From Halorhodospira halophila SL1 (GTDB lineage Bacteria > Pseudomonadota > Gammaproteobacteria > Nitrococcales > Halorhodospiraceae): a stretch of DNA of 32,000 nucleotides. The stretch is from the NCBI RefSeq assembly GCF_000015585.1, contig NC_008789.1:810001-842000 (forward strand). The letters are read 5' to 3'. The translations under genes were made by a program, and so were the position numbers. This document shows, piece after piece, positions 6,303 through 24,673 of the stretch. The notes beneath the pieces were generated by a model. That model had not been told where the DNA came from and searched no databases. It saw only the letters and a list, made by a program, of their open reading frames with translations. Every line of letters starts with the position of its first letter. Position 1 is the first letter of the stretch.

Positions 6303-6378
6303 GGGGCCGTAGCTCAGTTGGGAGAGCGCGACATTCGCATTGTCGAGGTCAGGGGTTCGACTCCCCTCGGCTCCACCA
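6303..6378 (+). tRNA. tRNA-Ala (anticodon CGC)
   Basis: 76-nt cloverleaf folded by hand: acceptor GGGGCCG/CGGCTCC with the G3:U70 alanine identity pair, anticodon loop TTCGCAT, T-arm AGGGG-TTCGACT-CCCCT, encoded CCA. Confidence 0.93.
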
Positions 6379-7478: not shown

Positions 7479-7646
7479 TCTGCTTTCGGCGCAGGCGTCG
7501 CCACCACAGACACACCCCCTGATGCCGCCCTCCTACGCCGCGGCCACAGCTGCCCGACCCCTGCGGCTGTCGGCAGTTTTGACAACGCAACACCCCGACC
7601 CTCGCCTGCCCCGAAAAACGCGATTCCAATCAATGCCCTGGCAAAA

Positions 7647-7662
7647 CGGCACGGAACCTGCT
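7647..7662 (+). promoter_or_regulatory. Candidate sigma-54 (-24/-12) promoter of the EBP-OMP operon
   Basis: cGGCACggaacCTGCt has correct GG-N10-GC spacing and a perfect GGCAC -24 box; the -12 box is CTGC instead of TTGC. Lies about 45 nt upstream of ATG 7708. Confidence 0.45.
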
Positions 7663-7707
7663 CAGCCGTGTGTCCATTCCGTACCACCTGCCAGGAGAGA
7701 CAATCGC

Positions 7708-9071
<1,364 letters not shown>

Positions 9072-9075
<4 letters not shown>

Positions 9076-10175
9076 GCCGGGGGCACGGGCCTCGCGCCCG
9101 CCCCCCGCTGCGGCGCCGGATGCAACGGTGGTCCGGCCTCCCCCTGGCCGTGCTCCTCGCCGCCACGCCGCTGCTGGCCAGCGCCAACGAACCCGACGCG
9201 GTGGGCGCCCCGCCTCCGCCCCAGGAGACCGCCGGCGGACTGCAGCAGCGCACCATCCTCTCGCCCCAGGGCTCGTTCACCGCCGAGCCGTCGCTGAGCT
9301 ACTCCCAGTCCACGTCAACGCGGGTGGCCATCGACGGGGTCACCATTCTGCCGGCCATCGCCGTGGGGCTGATCTCGGTGCGCCAGACCCAGCGCGAGAG
9401 CCTCACCGCCGCGCTGGGGCTGCGCTACGGGCTCACCGACCGGCTGGAGGTGGAGACACGCATCCCCTACGTCTACCGCGAGGAGCAGGTGCGCGAGCGC
9501 GAGATCCTGCAGAGTTCGGACTTCGCCGGCATCAGAGACTCCGACGGCTACGGCCTGGGGGATGTCGAGGCCTCGTTGCGCTACCAGCTGAGCAGCGGCC
9601 GCGGCGACGGCGCCATCTTCACCGGCGGCCTGCGCGTGAAGAGCCGCACCGGGCGGGATCCGTTTGAGGTCGAGACCGACGAGATCCCCCTCGACGACGG
9701 CAACAGCGATGCACGCAACATCTCCATCTACAGCGAACAGCCCACCGGCAGCGGCTTCTACGCCGTCCAGCCCAGCCTCAACTGGGTCTACCCCTCGGAG
9801 CCGGCGGTGCTCTACGGCAGCCTGAGCTACCTCTACAACATCCCGCGCACCGTGACCCTGGAGGGGTCCGATGGCCCGATGCGCGTGCGCATCGAGCCGG
9901 GCAGCGCCATCGGGGTGAGCTTCGGCATGGGGCTGGCCCTCAACGACCGTACCTCGCTCAGCCTCGGTTACGACCACACCGCGGTACTGCGCACGCGCAC
10001 CGACGGCGCCCCCCGGGTGGATGCCGAGTTCGGCCGTTTTCAGGTGGGCTCGCTGCTGATCGGCGCCTCGCACCGGCTCGGACCGCGGACCAGCCTGGGG
10101 CTGTCGGTGGGCGTCGGGGTCACCGCGGAGGCCCCGGACGTGCAGGTGACCCTGCGCCTGCCGATTCGCTTCTGA
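9072..10175 (+). CDS. Outer-membrane beta-barrel protein (transporter-like)
   Basis: GTGA overlap with the EBP stop; an alternative ATG lies at 9120. Signal peptide ...LLAATPLLASA|NE, alternating beta-strand pattern, GYGLGD motif, C-terminal ...LRLPIRF (terminal Phe). Confidence 0.75.
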
Positions 10176-10191
10176 GCCGTCGGGGCCGGGC

Positions 10192-13100
10192 TCAGCCGGC
10201 CCCGTAACCGCCCCCGCCCGGGGTCTCGATGAGGATCTGATCCCCCGCCTCGAGATCCCGGGTGGCGGTGCCCGGCAGCTCTTCGACGGTGCCGTCCCGG
10301 CGCTCGATGGCGTTGCGCCCGCACGCCGCATCCGCGCCGCCGGCCAGCCCGAAGGGCGGTACGCGGCGGCGGTTCATCAGCGTCACCGCGGTCATCGGCT
10401 CCAGGAAGCGCAGGCGCCGGATGACCCCGTCGCCGCCCGGGCACGCCCCGCCCCCGCCGCTGCCCCGACGGATGGCGAAGCGCTCGACGCGCACCGGATA
10501 GCGCCACTCCAGCACCTCCGGATCGGTTAGGCGCGAGTTGGTCATGTGGGTGTGGACCGCAGAGCTGCCGGCGAAGTCCGGCCCGGCGCCGGCGCCGCCG
10601 CAGAGGGTCTCGTAGTACTGGTAGCGCTGGTTGCCGAAGGTCAGGTTGTTCATGGTGCCCTGGCTGGCAGCCATCGCCTGCAGCGCCCCGTAGAGGGCGT
10701 CGGTCACCGCCTGGGAGGTCTCCACATTGCCGGCGACCACGGCGGCCGGGTAGCGCGGGTTGAGCATCGAACCCTCCGGCACGACGATCTCCAGCGGCTC
10801 CAGGCAGCCTTCGTTGAGCGGGATATCGTCCTCGACCAGGGTGCGGAAGACGTACAGCGTGGCCGCCCGGGTGATCGCCAGCGGGGCGTTGAAGTTGCTC
10901 TCCGCCAGCTGCTCGGAGGTGCCGCTGAAGTCGATCCGCGCCCGGCGCGCGGCGTGATCGACGCGGACCGAGACCCGGATCCGCGCGCCGTTATCCAGAT
11001 CACCGGTGAACTCGCCGTCGGCGAGGCGATCGATGACCCGGCGCACGTGCTCGGCGGCGTTCTCCTGGACGAAGCCCATGTAGGCCTGCACCACCGCCAG
11101 GCCGAACTGCGCCACCATGCGCCGCAGCTCGGCGACGCCCTTCTCGTTGGCGGCGATCTGCGCCTTGAGATCGGCGATGTTCTGCGCCACGTTGCGCGCC
11201 GGATACGGGCCACCGCTCATCACGGTGGTGAACGCCTCCTCGAGGAAACGCCCCTCGGCGACGACCTGGAGGTCGTTGATGAGCACCCCCTCCTCGGTCA
11301 CCCGGGTGGAGTCCGCCGGCATCGATCCCGGGGTACGGCCACCGACATCGGCGTGGTGGCCACGGCTGGCGCAGAAGAAGAGCAGCTCCTGCCCGTCCGC
11401 GGAGAAGACCGGCGTCACCGCGGTGAGATCGGGCAGGTGCGTGCCGCCATTGTAGGGATCGTTGAGCAGGAAGACGTCGCCGGGGCGCAGGGTCTCGCCG
11501 CGGCGATGGAGGATGGTGCGCACCGCCTCCGACATCGAGCCGAGGTGGACCGGGATGTGCGGCGCGTTGGCCACCAGGTTGCCGTCGGCGTCGAAGAGCG
11601 CACAGGAGAAGTCGAGCCGCTCCTTGATGTTCACCGACTGCGCCGTCCCGGCCAGGGTCGTGCCCATCTGCTCGGCAATCGAGCGGAACAGGTTGTTGAA
11701 CACCTCCAGCAGCACCGGGTCGGGGCGCCGGGTATCCACCTGCGGTGTCTGCACCGGCTGCCCCGCCTCGGCGGTCACCGACCGGCGCAGGATCAGCTGA
11801 TCGCCGCCGGTCACCTCCGCCTCCCAGCCGGCGTCGATCACCGTGGTGGCGTTCTCCTCCTGGAGGATCGCCGGCCCGCTCAGCCGGGTGCCCGGGAGCA
11901 GATCGGCGCGGGCGTAGACCGGCTGCTCCGCCATTCGCTGGCCATCCCAGGCCGTGACCCGGGCCAGCGGCTGCGGCGGGGCCTTCGGCGCCGGCGCCTC
12001 GCCCTCGCCCGCTTCCTCCGCCGCGGCGTGGTGAATCGCCTCGACGCTGAGCGCCTCGAGGACCCGCGGGCGGTCATCGAGGGTGAAGCCGAAGCGCTGG
12101 CGGTGCAGCCGGGCAAAGGCCGCGTCGACCTCGGCGACGTCGTCGCTGCCGGGGACCTCGAGCGCGGTATCGGTGCCGGCGTAGCGGACGTGGGCCCGCA
12201 CGCGCAGCGTCGCCGCCTCGCCCGCCAGCCCCTGGGTCGCCAGCCCGGCGCGGGCCTCGGCGGCGAGCTCGTCGATCACGTCGGCCAGCTGCGGGGCGCT
12301 GGCCGGCTCCAGGGGCGCCTCCACGGTGCGCTGACTGATGGCGGTGATGTCCGCCAGCCCCATGCCGTAGGCCGAGAGCACCCCCGCCAGCGGGTGGACG
12401 AACACCGTGCGGATGCCCAGCACATCGGCCACGGCACAGGCGTGCTGCCCCCCGGCGCCACCGAAGCAGTTGAGGGCGTAGCGGGTGACGTCGTAGCCGC
12501 GCTGCACCGAGATACGCTTGATCGCCTGGGCCATGTTCTCCACGGCGATACGCCGAAAGCCGGCGGCCACCGCCACCGGCTCCCGGGCATCCCCGGTCTC
12601 GGCGTGGATGCGCTCGGCCAGCTCGGCGAAGCGCTCGTGCACCCCCTCGGCGTCCAGGGGCTGATCGGCACCGGGGCCGAAGAGGCGCGGGAAGAACTCC
12701 GGGCGGATCAGCCCGAGCAGGACATTGCAGTCGGTGACGGTCAGCGGCCCGCCGCGGCGGTAGGCCGCCGGCCCCGGATCGGCGCCGGCGGAGTCGGGCC
12801 CGACCCGGTACTTCATGCCGTCGAAGTGGCAGATCGAGCCGCCCCCGGCAGCGACGGTGTGGATCTGCATCATCGGCGCGCGGATGCGGCAGCCGGCGAT
12901 CTCCGCCTCGAAGGTGCGCTCGAACTCGCCGTCGTAGTGGGCCACGTCGGTGGAGGTCCCGCCCATGTCGAAGCTGATCAGCCGGTCGATGCCCGCCATG
13001 GCCGCGGTGCGCACGGCGCCGACGATCCCGCCGGCGGGGCCGGAGAGGATGGCGTCCTTGCCCTGGAACTGCGCGGCGCTGGTCAGCCCGCCGTTGGACT

Positions 13101-13833
13101 GCATGAACAGCAGCGGCACATCGCCGAGCTCGGCGGCCAGGCGCTCGACGTACCGCCGCAGCACCGGCGACAGGTAGGCGTCGACCACGGCAGTATCCCC
13201 CCGGCCGACGATCTTCATCACGGCGGCGGCCTCGGCACTGGTCGTCACCTGGGTGAAGCCCACCTCGCGGGCGATGCGGGCCACCACCTGCTCGTGGGCG
13301 GCGTCGCGCCAGGCGTGCATGAGCACCACCGCCAGCGCCCGGTAGCCGGCGGCGTAGGTGTGCTCGAGCCGGGCGCGCACGGCGTCGGCATCCAGCGTGC
13401 GGACCACCGAGCCGTCGGCGCCGAGCCGCTCGGGGATCTCGATGACCTCGGAATAGAGCATCTGCGGCAGGCGCACGCGCCGGTCAAAGATATCGGGGCG
13501 GTGCTGGTAGCCGATGCGCAGCTGATCGGCCAAGCCCTCGGTGATGGCGAGGACCGTGGGCTCGCCGCGGCGCTCGAGCAGCGCGTTGGTCGCCACCGTG
13601 GTCCCCATGCGCACCGCCTCGATCCGCTCGGCCGGGATCGGGGCGTCGGCCCCCACACCGAGGATGGTGCGGATGCCGTGGAGGGCGGCGTCGGTGTACT
13701 GCTCCGGGTTCTCGGAGAGGAACTTGCGGGCGATCAGGCGCCCGTCGGGGGCGCGGGCGATGACGTCGGTGAAGGTACCGCCCCGATCGATCCAGAACTG
13801 CCAGCGCTCTCCCGCCGCGAAGCCGTCCGTCAT
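10192..13833 (-). CDS. Fused hydantoinase A / hydantoinase B family protein (5-oxoprolinase-type, ATP-hydrolysing)
   Basis: 1213 aa from ATG 13831-13833. N-terminus [14 protein letters not shown]; the length and two-domain architecture are typical of HyuA-HyuB fusions / 5-oxoprolinase. Confidence 0.85.
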
Positions 13834-13894
13834 GACCCACTCCTGCGACTCATACAACCGGCCATCTTCGCACAGGGTCATGCGCGCGTGTGGC

Positions 13895-14011
13895 GTCACC
13901 GCAGATACTGACCTGCGGCTATCCCGTTACTTCGGCACGAGCGAAGGCTACTGGCTGCGCCTGCAGAACGCTTACGACCTGGAGGAGGCGCGCCGCCAGC
14001 TGGCCGCGTGA
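13895..14011 (+). pseudogene. higA: C-terminal stump of a HigA-family (Xre HTH) antitoxin
   Basis: ...[37 protein letters not shown] matches the conserved HigA C-terminus (LS.yFGTS.e.WLnLQ..YDL). There is no N-terminal HTH half and no higB. Confidence 0.6.
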
Positions 14012-14037
14012 CGGACGCTGCGCGGAAGTCGTCGAAG

Positions 14038-14114
14038 ATGGCGCCCCGGGCAGGATTCGAACCTGCGACCTATCGCTTAGGAGGCGATTGCTCTATCCGG
14101 CTGAGCTACCGGGG
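14038..14114 (-). tRNA. tRNA-Arg (anticodon CCU)
   Basis: 77-nt cloverleaf on the minus strand: GCCCCGG...CCGGGGC acceptor, anticodon loop CTCCTAA, T-arm GCAGG-TTCGAAT-CCTGC, encoded CCA. Confidence 0.92.
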
Positions 14115-14150
14115 CCGGCGCCTAACTTGTACCCATCCGCCCGCCACCGG

Positions 14151-14766
14151 TCAACCGGCACGCCGGTGGCGCAGCACGAGGTTGCGCAGCCGGTACAGCA
14201 ACAACCCGGCAACGGCGACCAGAAGCAACAGCGTCACCACGGTGCCGTAGGTGCCCAGGTAGGCCTCCACACGGGCCCAGTTGGAGCCGGTGGCGTACCC
14301 GGCGGCGAGGAGGACGCCGTTCCACAATGTGGTGCCGAGCAGGGTCAGCAGCAGGAACGGAACCAGCCGCATCGGCAACAGCCCGGCCGGGATGGAGACC
14401 AGGCTGCGCACGGTGGGTACAAAGCGCCCGAAGAGCACGATCCACGCCCCGTGCCGGCGGAAGACCCGATGGGTCACCTCCAGATCGCGCTCTTGGATCA
14501 GGTACCAGCGGCTGCCCCGGCGGACCCACCGGCGGGCCCGCGCATCGCCGACCGCCCGCACCACCAGGTAGATCAGCGTTGACCCCAGGGTGGCCCCCAG
14601 GCTGGCGGCAGCCAACACGGTCACCGGGTTGAGCTCGGCCTGGTAGACGGCGTAGCCGAGGAAGGGCATGACCGCCTCGGGGGCGAGCACGATCATCACC
14701 GCAAAGATCCCCAACCAGCCCAGCAGCTCGACCGCGTCGACGATGAGTTCCGGCATGCGCAGCGAT
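14151..14766 (-). CDS. DedA-family inner-membrane protein
   Basis: 205 aa from ATG 14764-14766 (MPELIVDAVE...). Multi-TM, with the DedA motif context FGRFVPTVRSLVSIPAG. Confidence 0.8.
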
Positions 14767-14888
14767 CCCTCCCGGTTGGTGCACGTCGGACCGGCCTCGA
14801 CCGGCCCTGATACAGGGTACCAGCCGCTCCCTGCCCCACCCGGGCAACCGGTGTAAGGGCGCGGCAACACCGGCCGCGGCAGGCGCAG

Positions 14889-14934
14889 AACGCCGCCCTG
14901 CGGGCCCGGCACCCCGCCGGGCCCGCAGGGCGTT
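14889..14934. promoter_or_regulatory. Long perfect palindrome, candidate enhancer (UAS) for the sigma-54 promoter
   Basis: ccctgcgggcccggc (14896-14910) / gccgggcccgcaggg (14916-14930) around a 5-nt centre, extended by aacg/cgtt. Lies about 105-150 bp upstream of the -24/-12 element. Confidence 0.45.
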
Positions 14935-15035
14935 ACGCCGGCGCAGCACTCGACCGCTCGCTGCGGCGCAAGGCCCCACCGTGGACCGCCCCAAAAACCC
15001 CGGCCACTCCGCATGTTACGGCTCACAGGCCCGGT

Positions 15036-15051
15036 TGGCCCGGCAATTGCA
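15036..15051 (+). promoter_or_regulatory. Sigma-54 (-24/-12) promoter
   Basis: TGGCCCGGCAATTGCA versus consensus TGGCAC-N5-TTGCW, with correct GG-N10-GC spacing. About 110 nt upstream of ATG 15161. Confidence 0.7.
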
Positions 15052-15160
15052 CTAATAAGGCTGCGGCGCTGCTCGTCCCCCCAGGCGGCGCCCCCGCGGA
15101 GGCCCGGCCGCTGACGGCCGGGCCCCGCGTTAACCACTACGACCGAGAAGAGGGAACGAC

Positions 15161-16507
15161 ATGATCAAGCAAACGACGCTCGCCAGCACCCTGGTCCTGG
15201 CCATGGCTGTAAGCGGTACCGCCTGGGCGAACCCGCAGAACATCGCCGAAGGCGAAGAGAACACCCTGTCCGCCTCGGTGAACGCCAACGCCGACGACGG
15301 CAGCGCCGCCGCCAGCGAAGGCTCGACGGCCAACGTGAACAACAGCGCCCAGGACGGCTCGTACAACACGGAGAAGAACTACAGCTCGGAGTCGGCCTAC
15401 AACAAGGACGATAACTCCGATAACAGCACCAACCTGACGGACTCTCAGAACAGCACCAGCAGTTCCGAGATGAGCTACGCCAAGGATGACAACTCCGACA
15501 ACAGCACCAACGTGACGGATTCCCAGAACTCGTCCACGTCCAAGAACTGGGACGACAACTCGGACAACAGTCTGACCGACTCCCAGAACACGACGAAGTC
15601 CAGCAGTCAGGAGATGTCCTACAACAAGGATGACAACTCGGACAACAGCACCAACCTGACGGACTCTCAGAACAGCACCAGCAGTTCCGAGATGAGCTAT
15701 GCCAAAGATGACAACTCCGACAACAGCACCAACGTGGCCGACTCGCACAACAGCAACAGCGAGAAGAACTACAGCTCGGAGATGAGTTACAACAAGGACG
15801 ACAACTCCGATCGCAGCACCAACGTGGCGGACTCCCACAACGACAACTCGGACCGCAGCGACAACTCCGATCGCAGCTCGAGCGTGGCCGACTCGCACAA
15901 CAGCGAGAAGAACTACAGCTCGGAGATGAGCTACAACAAGGACGACAACTCCGATCGCAGCACCAACGTGGCGGACTCCCACAACGACAACTCGGACCGC
16001 AGCGACAACTCCGACCGGAGCCTGACGGACTCCCAGAACGACAACTCCGATCGCAGCACCAGCGTTGCGGATTCCCACAACTCGGATAGCAGCAACAACG
16101 ACTCGTTCAACAAGGACAACAGCGACCACTCGGATAACAGCACCGCCGACTCGTACAACACCGACGAGAGCGACAACTCCGACAACAGCATCGCTGATTC
16201 CTACAACACCATGGACTCCCACAACACGATGAAGGACTCGCAGAACGAGATCAGCGACGCCTTCAATCACTACCTCGACATGGAGATGACGGTCGCCAGC
16301 TCCGAGCTTGAAGGCACAGTGAGTGGCAACACCCTGCGCATCGGCGGCGACGACGACGCCTGGCTGCACGTCAATAACCGCATGGCGGAAGGCTCGATCT
16401 CCGGCAACGCGGGCATCACCCAGGTCTCGCAGAACGGTGGCGTCGGCAGCCTGATCCAGCAGAACGTGACCATGCAGGGCAACGTGCGCATCAACCCGGC
16501 CCAGTAG
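15161..16507 (+). CDS. Secreted D/N/S-rich tandem-repeat protein with conserved N/Q/G-rich C-terminal module
   Basis: RBS agaggga. Signal peptide MIKQTTLASTLVLAMAVSGTAWA|N, about 300 aa of EMSY(N/A)KDDNSD(N/R)STN..DS(Q/H)N units, and a C-terminal module ...SGNAGITQVSQNGGVGSLIQQNVTMQGNVRI. Confidence 0.85.
   Translation: MIKQTTLASTLVLAMAVSGTAWANPQNIAEGEENTLSASVNANADDGSAAASEGSTANVNNSAQDGSYNTEKNYSSESAYNKDDNSDNSTNLTDSQNSTSSSEMSYAKDDNSDNSTNVTDSQNSSTSKNWDDNSDNSLTDSQNTTKSSSQEMSYNKDDNSDNSTNLTDSQNSTSSSEMSYAKDDNSDNSTNVADSHNSNSEKNYSSEMSYNKDDNSDRSTNVADSHNDNSDRSDNSDRSSSVADSHNSEKNYSSEMSYNKDDNSDRSTNVADSHNDNSDRSDNSDRSLTDSQNDNSDRSTSVADSHNSDSSNNDSFNKDNSDHSDNSTADSYNTDESDNSDNSIADSYNTMDSHNTMKDSQNEISDAFNHYLDMEMTVASSELEGTVSGNTLRIGGDDDAWLHVNNRMAEGSISGNAGITQVSQNGGVGSLIQQNVTMQGNVRINPAQ
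15371..16200 (+). repeat. In-frame coding tandem/dispersed direct repeats
   Basis: 15398-15514 is near-identical to 15620-15736 (222-bp register), and 15761-15877 to 15905-16020 (144-bp register, about 3-4 mismatches). Confidence 0.9.
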
Positions 16508-16534
16508 TCGGTCAGCGGTAACCACCCGGAACTG

Positions 16535-16554
16535 GGGGCGGCCACGGCCGCCCC
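16535..16554 (+). terminator. GC hairpin after the repeat-protein gene (attenuator/partial terminator candidate)
   Basis: ggggcggc / gccgcccc stem 28 nt after the stop. A second hairpin ccgcccggc/gccgggcgg lies at about 16579-16601. No U-tract. Confidence 0.4.
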
Positions 16555-16630
16555 GGCCCTCCGGCAGGGAAGTATCGGCAAGGACAGGCCCGCCCGGCAG
16601 CGCCGGGCGGACCGCATCGGGAGCATCCTC

Positions 16631-17026
16631 ATGAATGGCATCCGGCAACGGCTGTTTGATTGGACCACGGGTCGCACACCGATCCTGGCCTTGGGCGCCG
16701 CCCTCGCGACTCTGCCCGGACTCGCGGCCGCTGAAGCGCTTCACCACGGACAGCAGCTCTTCGAACAGCAACTCGGTGCCCCGGTGGCGGCCGAGGCGCT
16801 GGACGAGCAACGCGGTCTGGCGGACACCTTCCGCTACCAGACCAGCACCATCTCGGAACAGGGCACGGTCCTCGGCAACGTCGTGGAGTCGAGCCCCAGC
16901 GGCATGAACGTCATCCACGATGGCGCCCTGCGCGACAATCACGGGCTGACCACGGTCATCCAGAACTCGGGCCACCACGTGATCATCCAGGAAGCCACCA
17001 ACATCAACGTGACGGTAACCCCATGA
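16631..17026 (+). CDS. Small exported protein, paralogue of the C-terminal module of the repeat protein
   Basis: RBS gggag. Signal-like N-terminus ...PILALGAALATLPGLAAA|E. QGTVLGNVV...DNHGLTTVIQNSGHHVIIQEATNINVTV aligns with EGTVSGNTL...SGNAGITQVSQNGGVGSLIQQNVTMQGNV of the upstream gene. Confidence 0.7.
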   Translation: MNGIRQRLFDWTTGRTPILALGAALATLPGLAAAEALHHGQQLFEQQLGAPVAAEALDEQRGLADTFRYQTSTISEQGTVLGNVVESSPSGMNVIHDGALRDNHGLTTVIQNSGHHVIIQEATNINVTVTP

Positions 17027-17727
17027 ACCGCCACGCCACGCCACTGGCCACGCTCGGCGCCCTGGCCTGCCTGGCCCTGGCCACCCCGGCACCGGCCCAG
17101 GCCGCCGGGCTACCCATCCCGCACCTCGGCGGCGGACACCACGTGGTCGTCGAGAGCCTGCAGTCGGTCCGCTTCCGGGGCGTCGAACGCCAGGCCCTGG
17201 ACTACAGCTGCGGCTCGGCGGCGGTGGCCACCCTGCTCAGCTACCACTACGACCACTCGGTGGGCGAGCCCGAGGTCTTCGCCGGCATGTTCGCTGCCGC
17301 GGATCAGCAGCGGGTGCGCACCGATGGCTTCTCCATGCTCGACATGCAGCGCTACCTGGCCGAGCTGGGCTACCGCGCCGACGGCTTCAACCTCACCCTC
17401 GAGCAGGTAGCGGCGCTGCGCATCCCGAGCATCGTGCTGATCGACACCGGCGGCTACCTGCACTTCGTGGTGATCAAGGGCATCCGCGACGGCCAGGTCC
17501 TCGTCGGCGACCCGGCCATGGGGCTGCGGGCCTACAACGCCGAGACCTTCAAGCAGCTGCGCCGCGGCCCGCTGCTGGTCATCCGCGACCGCCACGACCT
17601 GGCGCAGCTCACCTTCAACCCCGACCGGGCCTGGGCCGTACAGACCCGCCCGCCGTTCGAGCACGCCCGCGAGCACCAGGGGCTGAGCGACTTTACGCGC
17701 AACCTGCGCCGACCGGGGGACTGGTGA
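17023..17727 (+). CDS. Stand-alone exported C39-family (papain-like) cysteine peptidase
   Basis: ATGA overlap with the previous gene. Signal peptide ...LALATPAPAQA|A, catalytic Cys in LDYSCGSAAVATLL, His in GYLHFVVIKG, Asp in VGDPAMG. Confidence 0.8.
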   Translation: MNRHATPLATLGALACLALATPAPAQAAGLPIPHLGGGHHVVVESLQSVRFRGVERQALDYSCGSAAVATLLSYHYDHSVGEPEVFAGMFAAADQQRVRTDGFSMLDMQRYLAELGYRADGFNLTLEQVAALRIPSIVLIDTGGYLHFVVIKGIRDGQVLVGDPAMGLRAYNAETFKQLRRGPLLVIRDRHDLAQLTFNPDRAWAVQTRPPFEHAREHQGLSDFTRNLRRPGDW

Positions 17728-17729
17728 TC

Positions 17730-18245
17730 ATGGCCGCGCCGACCGCCCTCCCCCACCGGGCCCCCTGGGCTGCGGGCCTGGCACTGCTGATCGGTGCCAT
17801 CGGCCACGCCGCCGCCGAGGAGACGCCGGCCTCCCCCTGGGACGACCTGGCCCAAGTGCCGTCCGCCGAGCTGGCCCAGTGGCGCGGCGGCTGGACCAGC
17901 GCCGACGGTGTCCTCGTGCGCTTCGGCTTCGAGCAGGCGGTGGCGGTCAACGGCGAAACGCTGGGCCACGCCCAGATCGATCCCGTGGCCGTGCCACTCG
18001 GCGACCGGGCCGGCGCCCACCAGGCCGCCCGGCAACTGGCCGAGTCGTTCCGCTTCACCACCACCGACGGCGTACAGATGCACCTGGGCGACCAGGGCAT
18101 GACCCTGGTGCTACAGAACAGCCTGGATGGACAACTGATCCAGGTCCTCCAAGATCTGGACGTTCAGCTGGAAGGGATCCCGGTGGAACGCCTCAACCGA
18201 CTGGGGGAGCTGATGCAGGTGCAGATGCTCGAAGGGCTGCGCTGA
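17730..18245 (+). CDS. Exported protein of unknown function
   Basis: Overlaps or abuts the C39 stop (GTG 17724 or ATG 17730). Signal peptide ...LALLIGAIGHAAA|EE. No recognised motif. Confidence 0.6.
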   Translation: MAAPTALPHRAPWAAGLALLIGAIGHAAAEETPASPWDDLAQVPSAELAQWRGGWTSADGVLVRFGFEQAVAVNGETLGHAQIDPVAVPLGDRAGAHQAARQLAESFRFTTTDGVQMHLGDQGMTLVLQNSLDGQLIQVLQDLDVQLEGIPVERLNRLGELMQVQMLEGLR

Positions 18246-18260: not shown

Positions 18261-19448
18261 TCACAGCCCCTGCGTACGCTCCACGACCCAGCGAAAACCG
18301 ATGCGCTCCTGCTCAAGGCGGACGCGCTCGCCGATGCGATCCTGGCGCAGATCCTCGAACAGCGCAGCCTCGGCTTCGGTCAGACGCGCCAGATCGCCGA
18401 GGAAGCGGTGCTCGCTCGGCTCCGCGGTCCACAGGGGGCGGTGCGCTTCCAGCGTGGCCCGGTCCATGAGGAGCGACTCGGCCTGCGGCAGCGCCCGACG
18501 CAGCCGGTTGAGGATGGCGAAGCCGTGGGTGTCGATATCCCCCCAGTAGGCGACACGCACGCGGTGCAGCCAGGGCACCTCGGCCAGGCGCTCGAGGCCG
18601 TAGCCGAGACCGAACACCACCAGCGCGCGGGGGTGCGCCGGGAAGGCGAGGCCGTTGGTCTTGTTCTCGGTGATGAAGACCGTCTCCACCGCCGGCGCCA
18701 GTGCCTGGAACTGCTCGGCGGGGATGGTCAAATCGGTGAGCCCGGCGATGGCGCACGCCGGATCGAGCACCCGAAAGCGCACCAGCGGCGGCTCCTGGCA
18801 CAACCCGTAGCGTTCGGCGAAACGCCGGGCGCCGGTGGCCTCGGCCTGGATGGCCTCGGCCGGCAGGACTGCATCGAGCAGCTCCATGAGCAGCTTGCGC
18901 CGGGCCTCGATGAACTTCGTATCCACTCCCGGGATATCGAGCTGGCGGAGGTAGACGCCGGGGCGCGGATGGTCCCGGAAGTAGCGCAGCACCGCGAGGA
19001 TCCGATCCCACGCCTCGGCGTGCTCCAGCACGGTCAGCGGCCGGCGGGCCAGCCAGTCGGCCAGCTCCGGGAACGCCGCCAGGCCCTGTCGGCAGAGGGC
19101 GTCGAAACGCTCTGCCTCCTGGCGGCGGCCGATCAGGCGCAGGGCGTCGGCCTCGGTCGGTACAACGGCGCCGGCCGGTAGCTCATTGCGGCCGTGGACG
19201 CGGTGACGGACGGTGCGCCACTGGATCTCGAAACCGTAACCGCGCTGCGCCCGGTCGGCGGCGGCGAGGCGCTGCACCCACTGCCGAACGCCCTCGAAGT
19301 CCTCGGCCAGTTCGCGGGAGCCCGGACGGCGGAGCCGCAGGCTCAGCGGGAAGAGCGCGGCACCGGTCACCCGCGCAGCGAGCAGTTCGCCCCGATCCCA
19401 GCGCTTCTGCACCTGCTGGCGCAGATCGGCGGGGGTCGTCCAGCTCAT
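18261..19448 (-). CDS. jetD: Wadjet JetD (DUF3322 N-domain + Toprim-like DUF2220 C-domain)
   Basis: 395 aa from ATG 19446-19448 (MSWTTPADLRQQVQKRWDRGELL...). C-terminal YWGDIDTHGFAILNRLR. ATGA overlap with the jetC stop. Confidence 0.8.
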   Translation of the reverse strand: MSWTTPADLRQQVQKRWDRGELLAARVTGAALFPLSLRLRRPGSRELAEDFEGVRQWVQRLAAADRAQRGYGFEIQWRTVRHRVHGRNELPAGAVVPTEADALRLIGRRQEAERFDALCRQGLAAFPELADWLARRPLTVLEHAEAWDRILAVLRYFRDHPRPGVYLRQLDIPGVDTKFIEARRKLLMELLDAVLPAEAIQAEATGARRFAERYGLCQEPPLVRFRVLDPACAIAGLTDLTIPAEQFQALAPAVETVFITENKTNGLAFPAHPRALVVFGLGYGLERLAEVPWLHRVRVAYWGDIDTHGFAILNRLRRALPQAESLLMDRATLEAHRPLWTAEPSEHRFLGDLARLTEAEAALFEDLRQDRIGERVRLEQERIGFRWVVERTQGL

Positions 19449-20833
19449 CCGCTGGTTGCCGCGCGCCGGATGGCCTTTTCGGCGTGGTACGCCTCGATGC
19501 TCAGATGGCGCAGCAGCGAGAAGCACCCGCCTTCGCCGTGGACGAAGCCGACACTGGCGACGAAGCGCTCGATGATCGCCCTGACCTGGAGGAACTTGCG
19601 CTCGTTGTACTGGGCGTCCTCGGAGCCGGTCACCGTATCCTCGGTGCAGGCCCGGAGCTGCTCGCGGAAGTCGCGGACCTCGGGGTCGGTGGTGGTGTCG
19701 GCGACCAGCTCGATGTAGCGCCCCGAGTTGTAGTCGATATCGAACAGCGAGGCGTTGATGGTTGCGATGCGCTCGCGGATCTGCGCGCGCTCTTTGTTGA
19801 GCTGGGCGTTGAAGTTGGCGATCTCGCGGATGGTGTTCTCGTTGAGCAGCTCCTTGAACCGGGCCTCGAAGCGGGGCAGGTCGTCCTCCTGGAGGGCGGC
19901 GATCTTCGCCTCGTTGGACCAGCCGAGGACGAAGCGGGAGCGGTCGTCGATGCGGTGGCGGTCGTCCTTCTCGTGGCGATCCCCGCCCGCCTTGATCTGC
20001 CCGGCCGGGGTGATGGCGCGATCCTCGCGCCGGAAGGTCTCCAGATCCCGGGTGCAGGCGTAGTCGAAGCGCCGACCCAGCTCCTGCTCCAGCCAGGCGT
20101 AGAACGCCGAGTCGGGACGGATGGCGATCTTACGCACCAGGGACTCGGGGTGCAGCGCGGGCGGCTCACTGCTGCGCGGCTCGCGCACCCGGTAGTAGAC
20201 CAGCCGGCCACGCAGGTGGCTGCGATCCACCCAGCCGGCCACGGCGCGGTAGTGCGCCTCCGGGACCAGGAGCGAGAGGCCGAAGTTGTGGAGCAGCCGC
20301 TCGATGGCCCCCTCCCAGTCCGTCTCCTGCTCATGGACCTGGAGGAGCTCACCGGCGAAGGGGACGGCCTCCTCATCGAGGCTCAGCTCCTGGCACAGGC
20401 GCTGGCGCAGCTCCAGCATGCGCGCCGGGATGTTGGAGCGGCGCTGACGCAGCGACTCCAGCTCCTCTTCCAGGCCGGCGTGCTCGGCACGCAGGTCGCG
20501 CATGCTCACCTGCGCCTCGGTTTGCTGGTTCTGGAGCCGGGTCAGCGCCTCTTCGGCGGCCTCGCGCTCGCCGGCCGCTGCCTGCTGGTTGGCGCGGAAG
20601 ACCTCCGCCGACTCAGCCAGCGGCAGCCCCAGGGCGCGGGCCAGCTCGTTGTAGGTGCGGGCACTGGCGCTGCGCCGCTCCTTCTCCTCGCTCTTGCGGG
20701 CGATCTCCGCCTTGAGCCGCTCCAGGCGATCCCCGCCATTGTCGGCGATGGCCTGCTTGAGCTCGTCGCGCTGGCCCTGCTGCTCGCCGTAGGTCCGGTC
20801 GAGCTGGGCGATCCGATCCTCCAGGCGGGTGAT
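19445..20833 (-). pseudogene. jetC: Wadjet JetC (SMC-like ATPase) remnant: coiled-coil/hinge only
   Basis: Hand translation extends the frame upstream of the ORF-track start to about 20833 (ITRLEDRIAQLDRTYGEQQGQRDELKQAIADNGGDRLERLKAEI...). No Walker A head; the C-terminal head is missing apart from the last about 38 aa (FVASVGFVHGEGG...). Confidence 0.7.
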
Positions 20834-21851
20834 CGCGCACGGCCAGGGCGTGCTGCTCCACCCCCTGGATCAGGTCCATGATGCGGCGGTTCTCCAGCCA
20901 GGCCTGGTCATCGAGGAACTTGCGCAGCTGCGCCGACAGCCGCGAGACGGTGCGCTGGGTCTCCTCGCCGGCATCCAACCAGTCGTGGTGGATGCGCGCC
21001 AGCCGGCGGTCCGGCCCCAGGGTCTGGACCGGTTCGAGTTCCAGGACGCGCTCGAGCAGATCGGTGAGCTCCTCCTGACGCGCCGGCGACATGAGAAACC
21101 CCCAGAAGGCCCGGAAGCTCTTGCCCTGGTCCGAGTCGGCGATGGCGTCGGCCTCCCCGAAGACCTCACCGAGCAGCGCCCCCTTGCTGCCGCCCCAGGT
21201 GGTGATGCGCTCGCGCACCTGGCGGTCGAGTTCACGGAAGTTCTGCTCCACCTGCCGGAAGTCGGAGAGCAGCCCGCGGGCCGTGCGCTCCACCTGGTAG
21301 AAGCGCTCCTTGATCTGCGTCTCGTCCAGCAGCGCCAGCTGCCCATCGCGGATGGCGGCAATCTCGGCGTCGATCTCGGCACGCCGGCGCTCCAGGGCCT
21401 CGATCCGCGCCTCGGGGTCGGTCTCCGCCCCCTGGACCACCTGACGGAGCAGATCGAAGACCGTCATCAGCCGCGACTCCGCCCCCACGAACTGCCGCTC
21501 CTGGAGCTCGTCGAGCCAGCCGAGCGCCGTCTCCGTCGCCGGGGTCAGATCGAAGTGCGGCTCGTCGGTATTCGGCGGGTAGAACTTGCGCAGCCAGCCC
21601 CGTTCGTCCGCCGCCCAGTCATTGAGATACTCCGCCGCCGAGCGTGGATAGACCGCCTCGCCCAACTCCTCGCGCAGGCCGTGCAGGTAGTCCTCCAGGG
21701 CGTTGGTCAGCTCCCCCTGGGCGCGCGCCCGGCAATTGGGCTCGACGAAGGCACGATGCAGGAAGCCGAGCACCAGCGGCGCGCTATCGGCAGCGAGCAG
21801 CCGCCAGGCCGGGTGGTGACGGCGCAGGGTGTCGAGGTGGTGGTAATCCAT
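20826..21851 (-). pseudogene. jetA: Wadjet JetA (DUF3375) truncated at about residue 340
   Basis: MDYHHLDTLRRHHPAWRLLAADSAPLVLGFL... is typical JetA. Recognisable sequence ends at ...IQGVEQHALAVRDHP, and the rest of the ORF-track product is out-of-frame jetC sequence. Confidence 0.7.
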
Positions 21852-22301: not shown

Positions 22302-22345
22302 CGGCGCGCTGGAAGTCATCGTCACGGCCGACGTCTGGCATGGAG
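22267..22345 (-). pseudogene. C-terminal stump of the cognate FitA/VapB-type antitoxin
   Basis: ...ASMPDVGRDDDFQRADDQEGAPRVFD* overlaps the PIN start. The 5' part is replaced at about 22340 by unrelated plus-strand sequence. Confidence 0.45.
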
Positions 22346-22463
22346 GCAAGCAGTGATAGCATCTCTAGCTTACCAACGGATGACGAGGGTATCCTCGTGG
22401 AGCGAGCGTTCGGGTCCACGGTCAACGGGACCGCCACCCCCGAGAGTGACCTCGACGTGGTCG
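22340..22463 (+). pseudogene. N-terminal fragment of an MntA-like nucleotidyltransferase
   Basis: MEASSDSISSLPTDDEGILVERAFGSTVNGTATPESDLDVVAL carries the GS-x9-SDLD NTase motif. About 80% DNA identity to 28858-28935, then breaks off. Confidence 0.6.
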
Positions 22464-22508
22464 CTCTGGACTCAGATCGAGCGCAGCGATCGCTCCCTGG
22501 CCACCTGA
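22464..22508 (+). pseudogene. 3'-terminal stump of a HEPN gene
   Basis: Reads SLWTQIERSDRSLAT* in its own frame. This is a DNA/protein match to the end of the HEPN gene at 23254-23298 (AFWIQIERSYRSLVA*). Confidence 0.55.
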
Positions 22509-22519
22509 GAAGATCGCTT

Positions 22520-22828
22520 ATGCGCCTTACGCAACGCCAGCGGGAGGTCATTCAGCAAGCAGCACGACGGGCCTTTGGCCCTGGCGCGCGGGTCAAGCTG
22601 TTCGGCTCCCGCCTCGACGATCAGGCCCGAGGCGGCGATTTCGACCTCCACGTCGAGACCTCCGAGGCGGATCCTGAGCGCCTCGTCGCGGCGCGGCTGT
22701 CCTTCCTCCAGGCACTCCATGCCGATCCAGCCCTGGAGGATGAGAAGATCGACGTGGTCGTTCAGAGCCCCTTGCACAGCGCGAGGCCGATCGACCAGGT
22801 GGCCAGGCAGGAAGGCGTCGAGCTATGA
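22520..22828 (+). CDS. Minimal nucleotidyltransferase (MntA-like antitoxin candidate)
   Basis: 102 aa from ATG 22520. KLFGSRLDDQARGGDFDLHVE NTase motif; ATGA overlap with the downstream HEPN gene. Confidence 0.7.
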   Translation: MRLTQRQREVIQQAARRAFGPGARVKLFGSRLDDQARGGDFDLHVETSEADPERLVAARLSFLQALHADPALEDEKIDVVVQSPLHSARPIDQVARQEGVEL

Positions 22829-23312: not shown

Positions 23313-23369
23313 ATGAACCCCGCAGCACTCCGCCTGCAGGTGCTGCGCGCCGAGGCAGGATTGCCGCAC
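23313..23369 (+). pseudogene. 5' fragment (19 codons) of a MarR-family EPS-regulator paralogue
   Basis: MNPAALRLQVLRAEAGLPH, compared with MDTEELHLQVLRLLDDNPH of the intact gene at 30678. DNA homology also covers about 20 nt upstream of the ATG. It ends exactly at the integrase stop codon. Confidence 0.6.
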
Positions 23370-24523
23370 TATTGGCTCGCCATCATCGCCTCGAACGCGG
23401 AACCGTCGTCGCCCAGGGCATTCGCCACGAAGGGGGCGTAGCGCTCGAAGAGCATCTTCGTCGAGGAGTGGCCAAGCAGCCGGGAGACGAATAACGGATT
23501 CTCGCCGGCAGCCAGGTGGAGCACGGCGGCCGTATGGCGGGTCTGGTAGACCCGTCGCGGGGCCAGACCGAGGGCCTTGAGGGTAGGCTTCCAGACCTGC
23601 TCGGCCACCCAGCTCGGGTGAAGCGGCCGCCCGTCCGAGCGCGTAAAGACGTAGTCGTCACCCTGCCGACCCCGAATGTGCCGATCCAGCTCCGCCGCCA
23701 ACCCCGGCGACAAGGGGATATCCCGCCGGGTCTTGCGGTGCTTGAGGGTCGTCTGCCGCCCATCGACCCGGGCCTCGCGAACCCGCAGCTGCCGGCGCTC
23801 CAGGTCCACGTAGCACACCTTCAGGCCGTCGACCTCGCAGCTGCGCAACCCGGTATAGAAACGCAGCTTAAAGTAGAGGTAGTAATCCGGATCGACGGCG
23901 GCGAGGAAGGCGTGGACCTGCTCCGCGGTCAGCGGCATGGGATCGTCGCGATCGTCGCGCAGGGGCCGGATTTGGCGCATGGGGTGCTCGATCCCGAGTT
24001 CGCTTTCGGCGAAGCGCATCACGCCGGCGAGGGGCGTGAGGATGAAGTTGATACGGGCGTTGCTCAGCCGACGCTCGCCGCGGGCGTTGGTGAGCTCCAG
24101 GAGTTCGTGCCGAAAGGCGCGGACCGCGCGCTCGGTGATCTGATCCAACGGCCACTCGCCGAAGTGCGGAATCAGATAGCCCTCCAGAACACCGCACACC
24201 CGCCGCGCGTAGCTCTCCTTCCAGTCCCCGAGGTGGAGCTGATACCACTGCCACGCGTAGGGGCCGAAGCGCTGATCCGGCGCTCGCGAGCCCTGCTCGC
24301 GCAGCCAGCGCTGCGCCTCGGCCAGCTTGCGGCTGTTGGGGAACCAGGCCGCATAATCGAACGTCCCCATCTCGATCTCGGCGTTGATCCGCCGCAGATC
24401 ACGCCGGATCCGCCGGCGATTCTCGGGCGTATCGCGCAGCCCGGAGGTCTCGCGGAAGCGCCTTCCGTACAGACACAGATCGTACTGCAGCACCCCATTG
24501 GGGCGGACACAGAAACTCGCCAT
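23369..24523 (-). CDS. int: Tyrosine site-specific integrase (phage type, DUF3596-like arm-binding N-terminus)
   Basis: 384 aa from ATG 24521-24523 behind ggagagg. Catalytic signature R (YTGLRSCE), H-x-x-R (TRHTAA), LLGHSS...ERY. Confidence 0.85.
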   Translation of the reverse strand: MASFCVRPNGVLQYDLCLYGRRFRETSGLRDTPENRRRIRRDLRRINAEIEMGTFDYAAWFPNSRKLAEAQRWLREQGSRAPDQRFGPYAWQWYQLHLGDWKESYARRVCGVLEGYLIPHFGEWPLDQITERAVRAFRHELLELTNARGERRLSNARINFILTPLAGVMRFAESELGIEHPMRQIRPLRDDRDDPMPLTAEQVHAFLAAVDPDYYLYFKLRFYTGLRSCEVDGLKVCYVDLERRQLRVREARVDGRQTTLKHRKTRRDIPLSPGLAAELDRHIRGRQGDDYVFTRSDGRPLHPSWVAEQVWKPTLKALGLAPRRVYQTRHTAAVLHLAAGENPLFVSRLLGHSSTKMLFERYAPFVANALGDDGSAFEAMMASQ

Positions 24524-24673
24524 GACCTTCACCTCTCCTTCCCTGGAGACGATGATCAATCGTACGCCCGAACGGGCGGTCTACGTCCACCACTGGCTGA
24601 CGGGAGCACTTGCTTCGCGGATCGCATATGAGCGCGGTGGCGGCGGATGGCCCCCAAACAGGCGGTCGCGGTG

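Follow-up and report, generated by a model that had tools for sequence, protein, structure and literature searches.

The C39 peptidase domains of bacteriocin ATP-binding cassette (ABC) exporters couple removal of a leader peptide to export, and the leaders of class II bacteriocin, microcin and NHLP precursors follow the consensus LSxxELxxIxGG, with hydrophobic residues at P4, P7 and P12 (positions are counted back from the second glycine, P1). In Pseudomonas, the catalytic cysteine of the C39 protein FapD is required for secretion, FapE alone was found in cells without its first ~70 residues, and no canonical C39 site was recognised in the Fap proteins; the substrate and role of FapD have been an open question since 2017 (PMC5557850). 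Here we analyse a 32,000-nucleotide stretch of the Halorhodospira halophila SL1 genome (contig NC_008789.1, positions 810,001 to 842,000; hereafter the window, whose own numbering is used throughout), in which an operon of four genes includes a free-standing C39 peptidase and a separate gene pair encodes a FapF-like outer-membrane protein (OMP) and a sigma-54 activator. Together these genes probably represent a divergent, undescribed but widespread branch of FapD/FapF secretion systems that is distantly related to Fap. In the literature searched we found no account of this cassette, and the nearest published remark is that homologues of fapD and fapF are co-localised in five further phyla (PMC6173800).

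A four-gene operon with a free-standing C39 peptidase

Four tightly packed genes on the + strand, in the order ORF1 (open reading frame 1), ORF2, ORF3 and ORF4, lie downstream of a sigma-54 -24/-12 element. A sequence-only reading of the window had described four same-strand frames joined by ATGA and GTGA overlaps, and the coordinates are as it gave them:

15036..15051, + strand: sigma-54 type -24/-12 element TGGCCCGGCAATTGCA, ending 110 nt before the ATG at 15161
15161-16507, + strand: ORF1, 448 aa
15403..16208, + strand: tandem DNA repeats in ORF1 with periods of 78, 144 and 48 nt, encoding a DNSDNS/DRSDNS-type low-complexity region
16283..16504, + strand: ORF1 C-terminal module, ~aa 375-448, ...SELEGTVSGN...SISGNAGITQVSQNGGVGSLIQQNVTMQGNVRI...
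16535-16554 and 16587-16613, + strand: two GC-rich stem-loops between ORF1 and ORF2, a candidate partial terminator or mRNA-stabilising element
16631-17026, + strand: ORF2, 131 aa
17023-17727, + strand: ORF3, 234 aa, ATGA overlap with ORF2
17724-18245, + strand: ORF4, 173 aa, GTGA overlap with ORF3

The public annotation of H. halophila starts ORF4 at ATG 17730, giving 171 aa, and names a protein identical to ORF3 (100%) 'C39 family peptidase' and ORF2 and ORF4 'hypothetical protein'. Assessed by eye, all four N-termini have a basic n-region, a hydrophobic core and an A-x-A-type site, with predicted signal cleavage at SGTAWA|NPQ in ORF1, GLAAA|EAL in ORF2, APAQA|AGL in ORF3 and GHAAA|EET in ORF4; a Sec signal peptide on each product, ORF3 included, is plausible, in agreement with the sequence-only reading.

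ORF3 matches the Pfam family Peptidase_C39 (PF03412; E=1.8e-17), and its best NCBIfam matches are FapD (E=9.8e-43, 146 bits against a cut-off of 330) and FilB (E=1.1e-33, 117 bits against a cut-off of 475). The catalytic Gln/Cys/His/Asp residues are present as Q57, C63, H147 and D163 and are invariant in 22 relatives. The 234-residue protein carries its by-eye signal peptide without fusion to a C39-ABC exporter, and ABC-transporter models cover only its peptidase domain. ORF3 is thus predicted to be a periplasmic, stand-alone C39 cysteine peptidase of the FapD/FilB kind, and both the intact C39 signature on a free exported protein and the likeness to FapD that had been proposed for it hold. 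In one metagenomic protein of 375 aa (P0288), an ORF2-like sequence is fused in frame to a C39 peptidase, either as a natural fusion or as an artefact of assembly or gene calling.

Conservation of the cassette and its FapF-like channel

Species-representative genomes (one per species) were scanned with a C39 alignment, and 597 of the first 600 matched stretches encode relatives, so that at least 597 related loci exist in these genomes. We fetched 80 loci and ran iterative profile searches on all their ORFs; synteny was counted in the 50 loci flanked by 6 kb or more in each direction. Alpha-, Beta- and Gammaproteobacteria account for the fetched loci, apart from a few of Desulfobacterota, Geobacterales and other metagenome-assembled genomes (MAGs). 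The recurring cassette comprises one or two ORF1-like genes, an ORF2-like gene (115-180 aa), the C39 gene and an ORF4-like gene (160-600 aa), usually with a FapF-like OMP and often with a sigma-54 activator beside the OMP. Next to the C39 gene stand an ORF2-like gene in 49/50 loci and an ORF4-like gene in 50/50; ORF1-like genes are found in 40/50, with at least two copies in 9. An OMP gene is present in 48/50 loci and an activator in 28/50, of which 21 have it on the same strand beside the OMP. H. halochloris and H. neutriphila have the six genes in one unbroken run, and Cupriavidus metallidurans CH34 has five of them in such a run on its megaplasmid.

In the window the last two components are encoded upstream of the operon:

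7522..9075, + strand: sigma-54 enhancer-binding protein with a VpsR-like N-terminal domain, an AAA+ domain, GAFTGA at residue 288 and a Fis-type helix-turn-helix; the true start is probably downstream of 7522
9072..10175, + strand: FapF-like outer-membrane beta-barrel, 367 aa, with a signal peptide and the C-terminus ...LPIRF; the likely start is ATG 9120

The OMP gene overlaps the stop codon of the activator gene. The activator matches PF00158 (E=1.9e-68), PF20161 VpsR (E=5.7e-10) and HTH_8 in Pfam. Against NCBIfam, the OMP matches FapF (E=2.9e-33, 115 bits; cut-off 700) and FilC (E=5.8e-14, 52 bits; cut-off 630), and against the sequence of the FapF crystal structure (PDB 5O67) its residues 53-367 align across the plug-and-barrel construct with E=1.5e-24. 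These matches identify it, at the level of sequence, as a FapF homologue. The sequence-only reading had flagged this activator and OMP as possible partners of the operon and had suggested testing whether the genes co-occur; the OMP homology, the GAFTGA loop of the activator and the counts in the well-flanked loci all bear the partnership out.

A double-glycine-type leader on ORF4 and ORF2

ORF4 consists of a signal peptide, a double-glycine leader (nt 17847-17891) and a mature part that ends in a module-like motif, GMTLVLQNSLDGQLIQV. The leader in the window reads L42-A-Q-V45-P-S-A-E49-L50-A-Q-W53-R54-G55-G56|W57. Across 80 ORF4-family sequences, P1 is Gly in 77/80, P2 Gly in 79/80, P3 Arg in 78/80 and P1' Phe in 68/80; P4 is hydrophobic in 52/80, P7 is Leu or Met in 80/80, P8 is Glu in 42/80 and P12 is hydrophobic in 72/80. 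ORF2 has a signal peptide, the leader-like sequence PVAAEALDEQRGL (aa 51-63, nt 16781-16819; V52...L57 D E Q R61 G62 L63) and one module. Its family of 78 sequences keeps Leu or Met at P7 (77/78), a hydrophobic residue at P12 (76/78) and Gly or Ala at P2 (77/78), with P1 variable (Gly in 31, Arg in 28). The near-invariance of a double-glycine-type leader placed after a signal peptide makes the ORF4-like and ORF2-like proteins likely substrates of the C39 peptidase, and the motif appears to supply a canonical C39 site of the kind that was not recognised in the Fap proteins. Cleavage would fall after the leader, in ORF4 at G56|W57. For the substrate and role of FapD, the leader would provide an exact peptide and scissile bond.

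A hidden Markov model (HMM) of the leader matches canonical FapE (E=2.4e-5 and 0.011), and ten leader windows searched against NCBIfam matched only FapE, weakly, and one double-glycine bacteriocin-like peptide family (E=0.0031). By eye, canonical FapA, FapB and FapE of Aidingimonas halophila (locus L061, 12589-16498) and Aeromonas (L004, 5173-8231) have 'L...(L/M/V/I)RG' soon after the signal peptide, and Acinetobacter FilA (L005, 5658-6527) has the leader-like MDDAALSAATGQ. A leader-like element may be general to the subunits of all FapD/FilB-type systems; the by-eye cases are backed by the leader HMM for FapE only. A C39 leader on ORF1 was also considered and dropped, the leader HMM finding no match in the ORF1 family (best E=0.35).

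Neither ORF2 nor ORF4 has a Pfam or NCBIfam match, and the ORF2 family is without a Pfam family; among 1.84 billion proteins its profile found 1412 representative clusters, none of them named, and a PDB sequence search with ORF2 gave chance-level matches only. An AlphaFold model of ORF2 built from 63 sequences (pLDDT 60.4) shows the leader as a short helix and the remainder as coil, which is compatible with an unfolded export substrate. The model of ORF4 (pLDDT 38.7) is useless, because the single-sequence homologue search gave only 5 close relatives.

The leader also bears on a quite different product. ORF2 and ORF4 could be C39-matured pro-peptides that leave by the barrel as toxins or signals in Sec-dependent, bacteriocin-like export, with ORF1 an unrelated, co-transcribed surface protein. 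A double-glycine-type leader in both families, the weak match to a double-glycine bacteriocin-like peptide family and a C39 peptidase adjacent in essentially every locus would all fit. The cassette, however, has neither an immunity gene nor an ABC transporter, ORF1 carries the same C-terminal module as ORF2 and ORF4 (see below) and is syntenic in 40/50 loci, its machinery shares homology with the exporter of Fap fibres, and the mature parts are N/Q/G-rich and repeat-like, unlike known bacteriocins. We therefore consider such export of peptides very improbable.

A C-terminal module shared by ORF1, ORF2 and ORF4

ORF1, the putative major secreted subunit, is composed of a signal peptide (aa 1-23), a conserved N-terminal stretch, Ser/Asn/Asp tandem repeats and one C-terminal module; the mature protein is 22% S, 17% N and 14% D with a net charge of -57, and it has no Pfam or NCBIfam match. 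Homologous proteins span 200 to 880 aa and fall into two compositional types, one rich in D/N/S (50-65% in Marinobacter, Thioalkalivibrio and Halorhodospira) and one in G/A (G+A of 42-55% in Burkholderiales). The N/Q/G-rich module that the sequence-only reading had noticed in the ORF1 C-terminus and in ORF2 is detected by BLASTP between ORF1 residues 359-446 and ORF2 residues 58-131 (E=7e-4). ORF4 has the distal part of the module, which that reading did not mention (E=0.005 against ORF2), with the motif G-hydrophobic-T-x-V-x-Q-N-x...I-Q.

In three relatives (L012, L022 and P0265), namely a Sneathiellales MAG, a Paracoccaceae MAG and a metagenomic protein, the subunit at the ORF1 position consists of 9-13 tandem modules with the consensus 'N.I..sFnG..GI.tVQQNNG..N......V'. 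The single C-terminal modules align with the tandem repeats of these multi-repeat subunits at 96.9% hhalign probability (E=2e-10), which indicates that the two are homologous, and the tandem-module subunits have a repeat-stack architecture of the CsgA/FapC type. An ORF2-family profile free of Fap sequences matches the third canonical FapB repeat, TIDKTAFSGAAGIIQTNQSAGNGN, with E=0.0014 and Aeromonas FapB with E=0.019 (Z=5991); the module is likely homologous to the Fap amyloid repeats.

With the same secretion machinery, ORF1 could also be no fibre subunit but a monomeric or loose polyanionic surface or matrix protein, for example one that acts as an adhesin, binds cations or minerals or forms a hydration layer, and the module mainly a signal for FapF targeting or secretion. 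ORF1 does hold a single module behind ~300 residues of low-complexity acidic sequence, and in single-module proteins the module is always C-terminal, as an export signal would be; its similarity to the Fap amyloid repeats is weak, and AlphaFold gave no confident beta-solenoid. A signal would not be expected to recur as it does in other members, where the module is repeated 9-13 times with the regular spacing of a CsgA/FapC-type stack, and its presence in three proteins per operon fits co-assembly. We regard a non-fibre product as unlikely, if clearly less so than peptide export.

Promoter and RNA elements

TGGCCCGGCAATTGCA fits TGGC-N7-TTGCW, a pattern expected 0.40 times in the 32-kb window and seen twice; the second match lies inside a coding region. 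Promoter candidates in the relatives were sought at -350 to +120 relative to the first ORF1-like start and awarded up to 12 points for agreement with TGGCACG-N4-TTGCW, of which GG and GC were obligatory; the controls were windows drawn from the loci themselves. Scores of at least 10 were found upstream of ORF1 homologues in 25/51 loci against 3.3% of control windows, and scores of at least 11 in 14/51 against 0.7%. Sigma-54-like promoters are conserved across the family, and the -24/-12 element that had been proposed 110 nt before the ORF1 start, with the right spacing, stands.

Hairpins after ORF1 had likewise been proposed. The two stems are found, but judged from the window by itself they do not stand out clearly from chance (z=-1.33 in one test, -2.1 in another), and neither has a U-tract behind it. 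The 113 nt after the ORF1-like stop codon were therefore compared with dinucleotide shuffles in 54 loci: the mean z is -2.87 and 76% of the loci fall below -2, whereas control regions within the C39 and ORF4 genes average -0.33 and -0.14. It is on account of this family-wide test with controls that we take the hairpins of the window seriously. The family as a whole conserves a stable RNA fold directly behind the subunit gene, which supports differential expression of the first gene.

Two further elements lie near the promoter. A perfect 10-bp hairpin (15101-15124) is located in the presumed 5' untranslated region of ORF1, and a perfect inverted repeat, whose sequence is kept in neither H. halochloris nor H. 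neutriphila, stands upstream:

14894..14932, no strand assigned: perfect 17-nt inverted repeat, ~125 nt upstream of the -24 element, a candidate activator-binding site or repetitive extragenic palindromic (REP)-like element

Relation to the Fap and Fil families

Since FapD, FilB, FapF and FilC are the best NCBIfam matches of ORF3 and the OMP, the locus could be merely a diverged copy of an already characterised fap or fil operon. All four matches lie far under their curated cut-offs (146 against 330, 117 against 475, 115 against 700 and 52 against 630 bits), and the H. halophila cassette proteins have no FapA, FapB, FapC or FilA match in Pfam or NCBIfam. The NCBIfam Fap models find nothing in Cupriavidus ORF1, ORF2 or ORF4 either, and the same models recognise the real FapB, FapC, FapD, FapE and FapF of an Aeromonas caviae locus. 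Among 60 ORF1-family members there are 0 FapC matches and 1 weak FapB match. In Aidingimonas halophila (L061) the cassette (7515-12005) and a canonical fapABCDE operon (12589-16498) stand side by side, and on that ground we take cassette and canonical fap for distinct paralogous systems. For the Fil side, FilB and FilC give ORF3 and the OMP weaker scores than FapD and FapF do; DUF6160 (FilA-type) has no match in ORF1, ORF2 or ORF4 of the window and matches 3/78 ORF2-family members at E>=0.029; and there are no FilD-, FilE- or FilF-like genes in the cassette of the window or its relatives. A diverged fap or fil operon is the least probable of the readings that we weighed, scarcely to be expected, and the earlier view that this is not a canonical fapABCDEF operon is confirmed.

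The sequence-only reading had recognised ORF1, ORF2 and ORF4 as members of no Fap family. This is right in that none of the three directly matches a FapB, FapC or FapE model, and it needs qualifying in that ORF4 appears to be distantly FapE-like and the module weakly resembles the FapB repeat. ORF4 occupies the position of FapE, and its iterated profile matches Aeromonas FapE with E=1.9e-10. By hhalign, the ORF4 core aligns with two FapE sequences at 81.6% (E=1.1e-5) over the N-terminal 34 columns, that is, the leader region, with a reversed control at 0.32. The six FapE matches in the ORF4-family alignment A2 are not independent, and the best of them (2.9e-29) is probably the FapE of the canonical L061 operon included there. 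A FapE-like ORF4 and a FapB-repeat-like module point to a divergent branch of the Fap kind, not to something unrelated.

Several observations weigh against this assignment, or against parts of the model built on it, and are set out together here. The three subunit-like proteins ORF1, ORF2 and ORF4 have no FapB, FapC or FapE model match at E<=1, and the links of the system to FapE and FapB appear distant. The non-iterated ORF4 profile reaches FapE with E=0.015 and 0.29 only, and because it is so much weaker than the iterated one we downgraded the ORF4-FapE claim; the modules align in register with 8 Fap repeats by hhalign, weakly (E=6e-4 to 2e-3, probability 14-28%). All FapF homologues are said to possess a periplasmic coiled coil (PMC6173795), and the H. 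halophila OMP is without this supposedly universal feature: only a Pro-rich NEPDAVGAPPPPQE lies between its signal peptide and residue 53, no coiled-coil predictor having been run. The Cupriavidus OMP homologue has a heptad-like segment. The activator/OMP pair of the window lies 5 kb from the operon, with a hydantoinase/oxoprolinase gene, tRNA-Arg(CCT) and a DedA-family gene between; as H. halochloris and H. neutriphila keep all six together, we regard this split as secondary. H. halophila ORF2 has Leu in place of Gly at P1, which makes its cleavage less certain. ORF1 is without a leader, and so its recognition for export is left unexplained by the model. The AlphaFold models are of low confidence (pLDDT ~60 and 39). 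Finally, secretion, cleavage, the route by which ORF1 is exported, polymerisation and any fibre or amyloid character are steps that we infer.

Proposed mechanism and significance

Taken as a branch of the FapD/FapF systems, the cassette would work as follows. A dedicated sigma-54 activator, co-transcribed with the FapF-like channel, would switch on the promoter at 15036; promoter and activator are both present, and the one presumably depends on the other, which in the H. halophila genome would place the split OMP/activator pair and the operon under common regulation. ORF1, ORF2, the C39 gene and ORF4 would form one transcript, in which the stem-loops after ORF1, by termination or by mRNA stabilisation, probably raise the ratio of ORF1 to the accessory products. 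All four products, judging from their signal peptides, would cross the inner membrane by Sec. In the periplasm, C39 would recognise the leaders of ORF4 and ORF2 and most likely cleave after them (in ORF4 at G56|W57), in parallel to the bacteriocin ABC exporters, and the FapF-like barrel would export the unfolded proteins. Outside the cell, the common N/Q/G-rich module would mediate assembly, with ORF2 and ORF4 as minor, priming or anchoring subunits and ORF1 as the bulk subunit, whose acidic Ser/Asn/Asp repeat may make up a hydrated surface layer that binds cations, as would suit a haloalkaliphile. The sequence-only reading had proposed a sigma-54-driven secreted fibre or matrix system; Fap-type machinery, promoter and synteny speak for it, and fibre or amyloid formation is the part that stays conjectural.

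A bolder version can be put forward only tentatively, as a conjecture that we think somewhat improbable. C39 and the FapF-like barrel would then be the outer-membrane analogue of a peptidase-containing ABC exporter, the leader of ORF4 and ORF2 would be both an export and a priming signal read in the periplasm, and the matured single-repeat proteins would template the stacking, outside the cell, of one-repeat subunits such as ORF1 into a cross-beta spine with a polyanionic Ser/Asn/Asp brush. If true, this 'amyloid-anchored brush' would be a modular architecture not described for curli or Fap.

The branch occurs in at least hundreds of proteobacterial species, including the tractable Cupriavidus metallidurans CH34 and Marinobacter. 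The cargo of FapD/FapF machinery would be far more diverse than FapC, from 13-repeat to single-repeat and from extremely acidic to Gly/Ala-rich proteins, and sigma-54 control and RNA structure behind the subunit gene, both of them conserved, are relevant to biofilm matrix production in the environment and to the engineering of secreted protein materials.

Genes surrounding the system

Directly downstream of ORF4 lies a decayed Wadjet defence system (18261-21851, - strand), in which no JetB is found; an MNT-like nucleotidyltransferase gene and a phage-type integrase gene adjoin it. This remnant, the nucleotidyltransferase and the integrase look like an island at the place where relatives carry the OMP and activator. 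Both tRNA genes and the hydantoinase/oxoprolinase gene are described as separating the halves of the system in the H. halophila genome only. A tRNA-linked genomic island carrying the operon was considered and rejected: the integrase and the defence genes come after ORF4, and the orientation of tRNA-Arg does not fit. The features are:

6303-6378, + strand: tRNA-Ala(CGC), upstream of the activator
14039-14115, - strand: tRNA-Arg(CCT), between the hydantoinase/oxoprolinase gene (10192-13899) and the DedA gene
18261-19526, - strand: JetD, intact
19445-20509, - strand: JetC fragment, 354 aa
20613-21851, - strand: JetA, truncated at ~residue 344/480
22340-22828: MNT-like nucleotidyltransferase
23369-24559, - strand: phage-type integrase

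Comparison with known systems

The acidic repeat of ORF1 resembles the SD-repeat stalks of the Gram-positive Sdr/Clf proteins, which are surface proteins with a long, acidic, Ser/Asp-rich tandem repeat of variable copy number, and several ORF1 homologues give compositional matches to a staphylococcal YSIRK protein model. This likeness is one of composition only, and the envelope, the anchoring and the export route differ. With curli (CsgA/CsgB/CsgG) the cassette would share a logic, in that unfolded N/Q/G-rich repeat subunits pass a dedicated outer-membrane channel and minor subunits share the repeat, whereas there is no sequence relationship and no Pfam match, the channel is of another type and curli have no protease.

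To the peptidase-containing ABC transporters and their double-glycine leader peptides the cassette is linked by the C39 fold with its Gln/Cys/His/Asp site and by a leader with hydrophobic P12, P7 and P4, Glu at P8 and Gly-Gly at P2/P1. The C39 unit of these transporters is a cytoplasmic domain of an inner-membrane ABC exporter; the cassette peptidase, in contrast, is free and predicted to be periplasmic, its leader follows a Sec signal peptide, and the export concerned would be across the outer membrane only. The Fil system of Acinetobacter baumannii (filABCDEF) also has a stand-alone C39 protein, FilB, beside a FapF-like barrel, FilC, and FilA has a leader-like 'DDAALSAATGQ' after its signal peptide; FilA is, however, another kind of subunit, and FilD (FadL-like), FilE and FilF have no counterparts in the cassette.

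Fap of Pseudomonas is the closest of the described systems. The cassette differs from it in having no FapA, FapB or FapC, in its additional small ORF2 family, and in a hypervariable major subunit made of one module plus low-complexity repeats or of 9-13 modules. ORF4 and ORF2 carry a canonical double-glycine leader, and none was seen in Fap (PMC5557850); the H. halophila channel is without a coiled coil; and the activator is encoded with the channel here, whereas the fap operon encodes no regulator according to a review (PMC6173800). A divergent fap operon of Aeromonas caviae (L004, 2242-4725) has a sigma-54 activator upstream, with an IS4-type transposase gene between activator and fapB, which conflicts with that published statement. 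In common with Fap, the cassette has subunits predicted to be Sec-exported, a free periplasmic C39 peptidase and a FapF-type barrel, N/Q/G-rich modules common to several operon products, the major subunit gene in first or early position and, directly after the peptidase, a protein with an apparently FapE-like N-terminal sequence.

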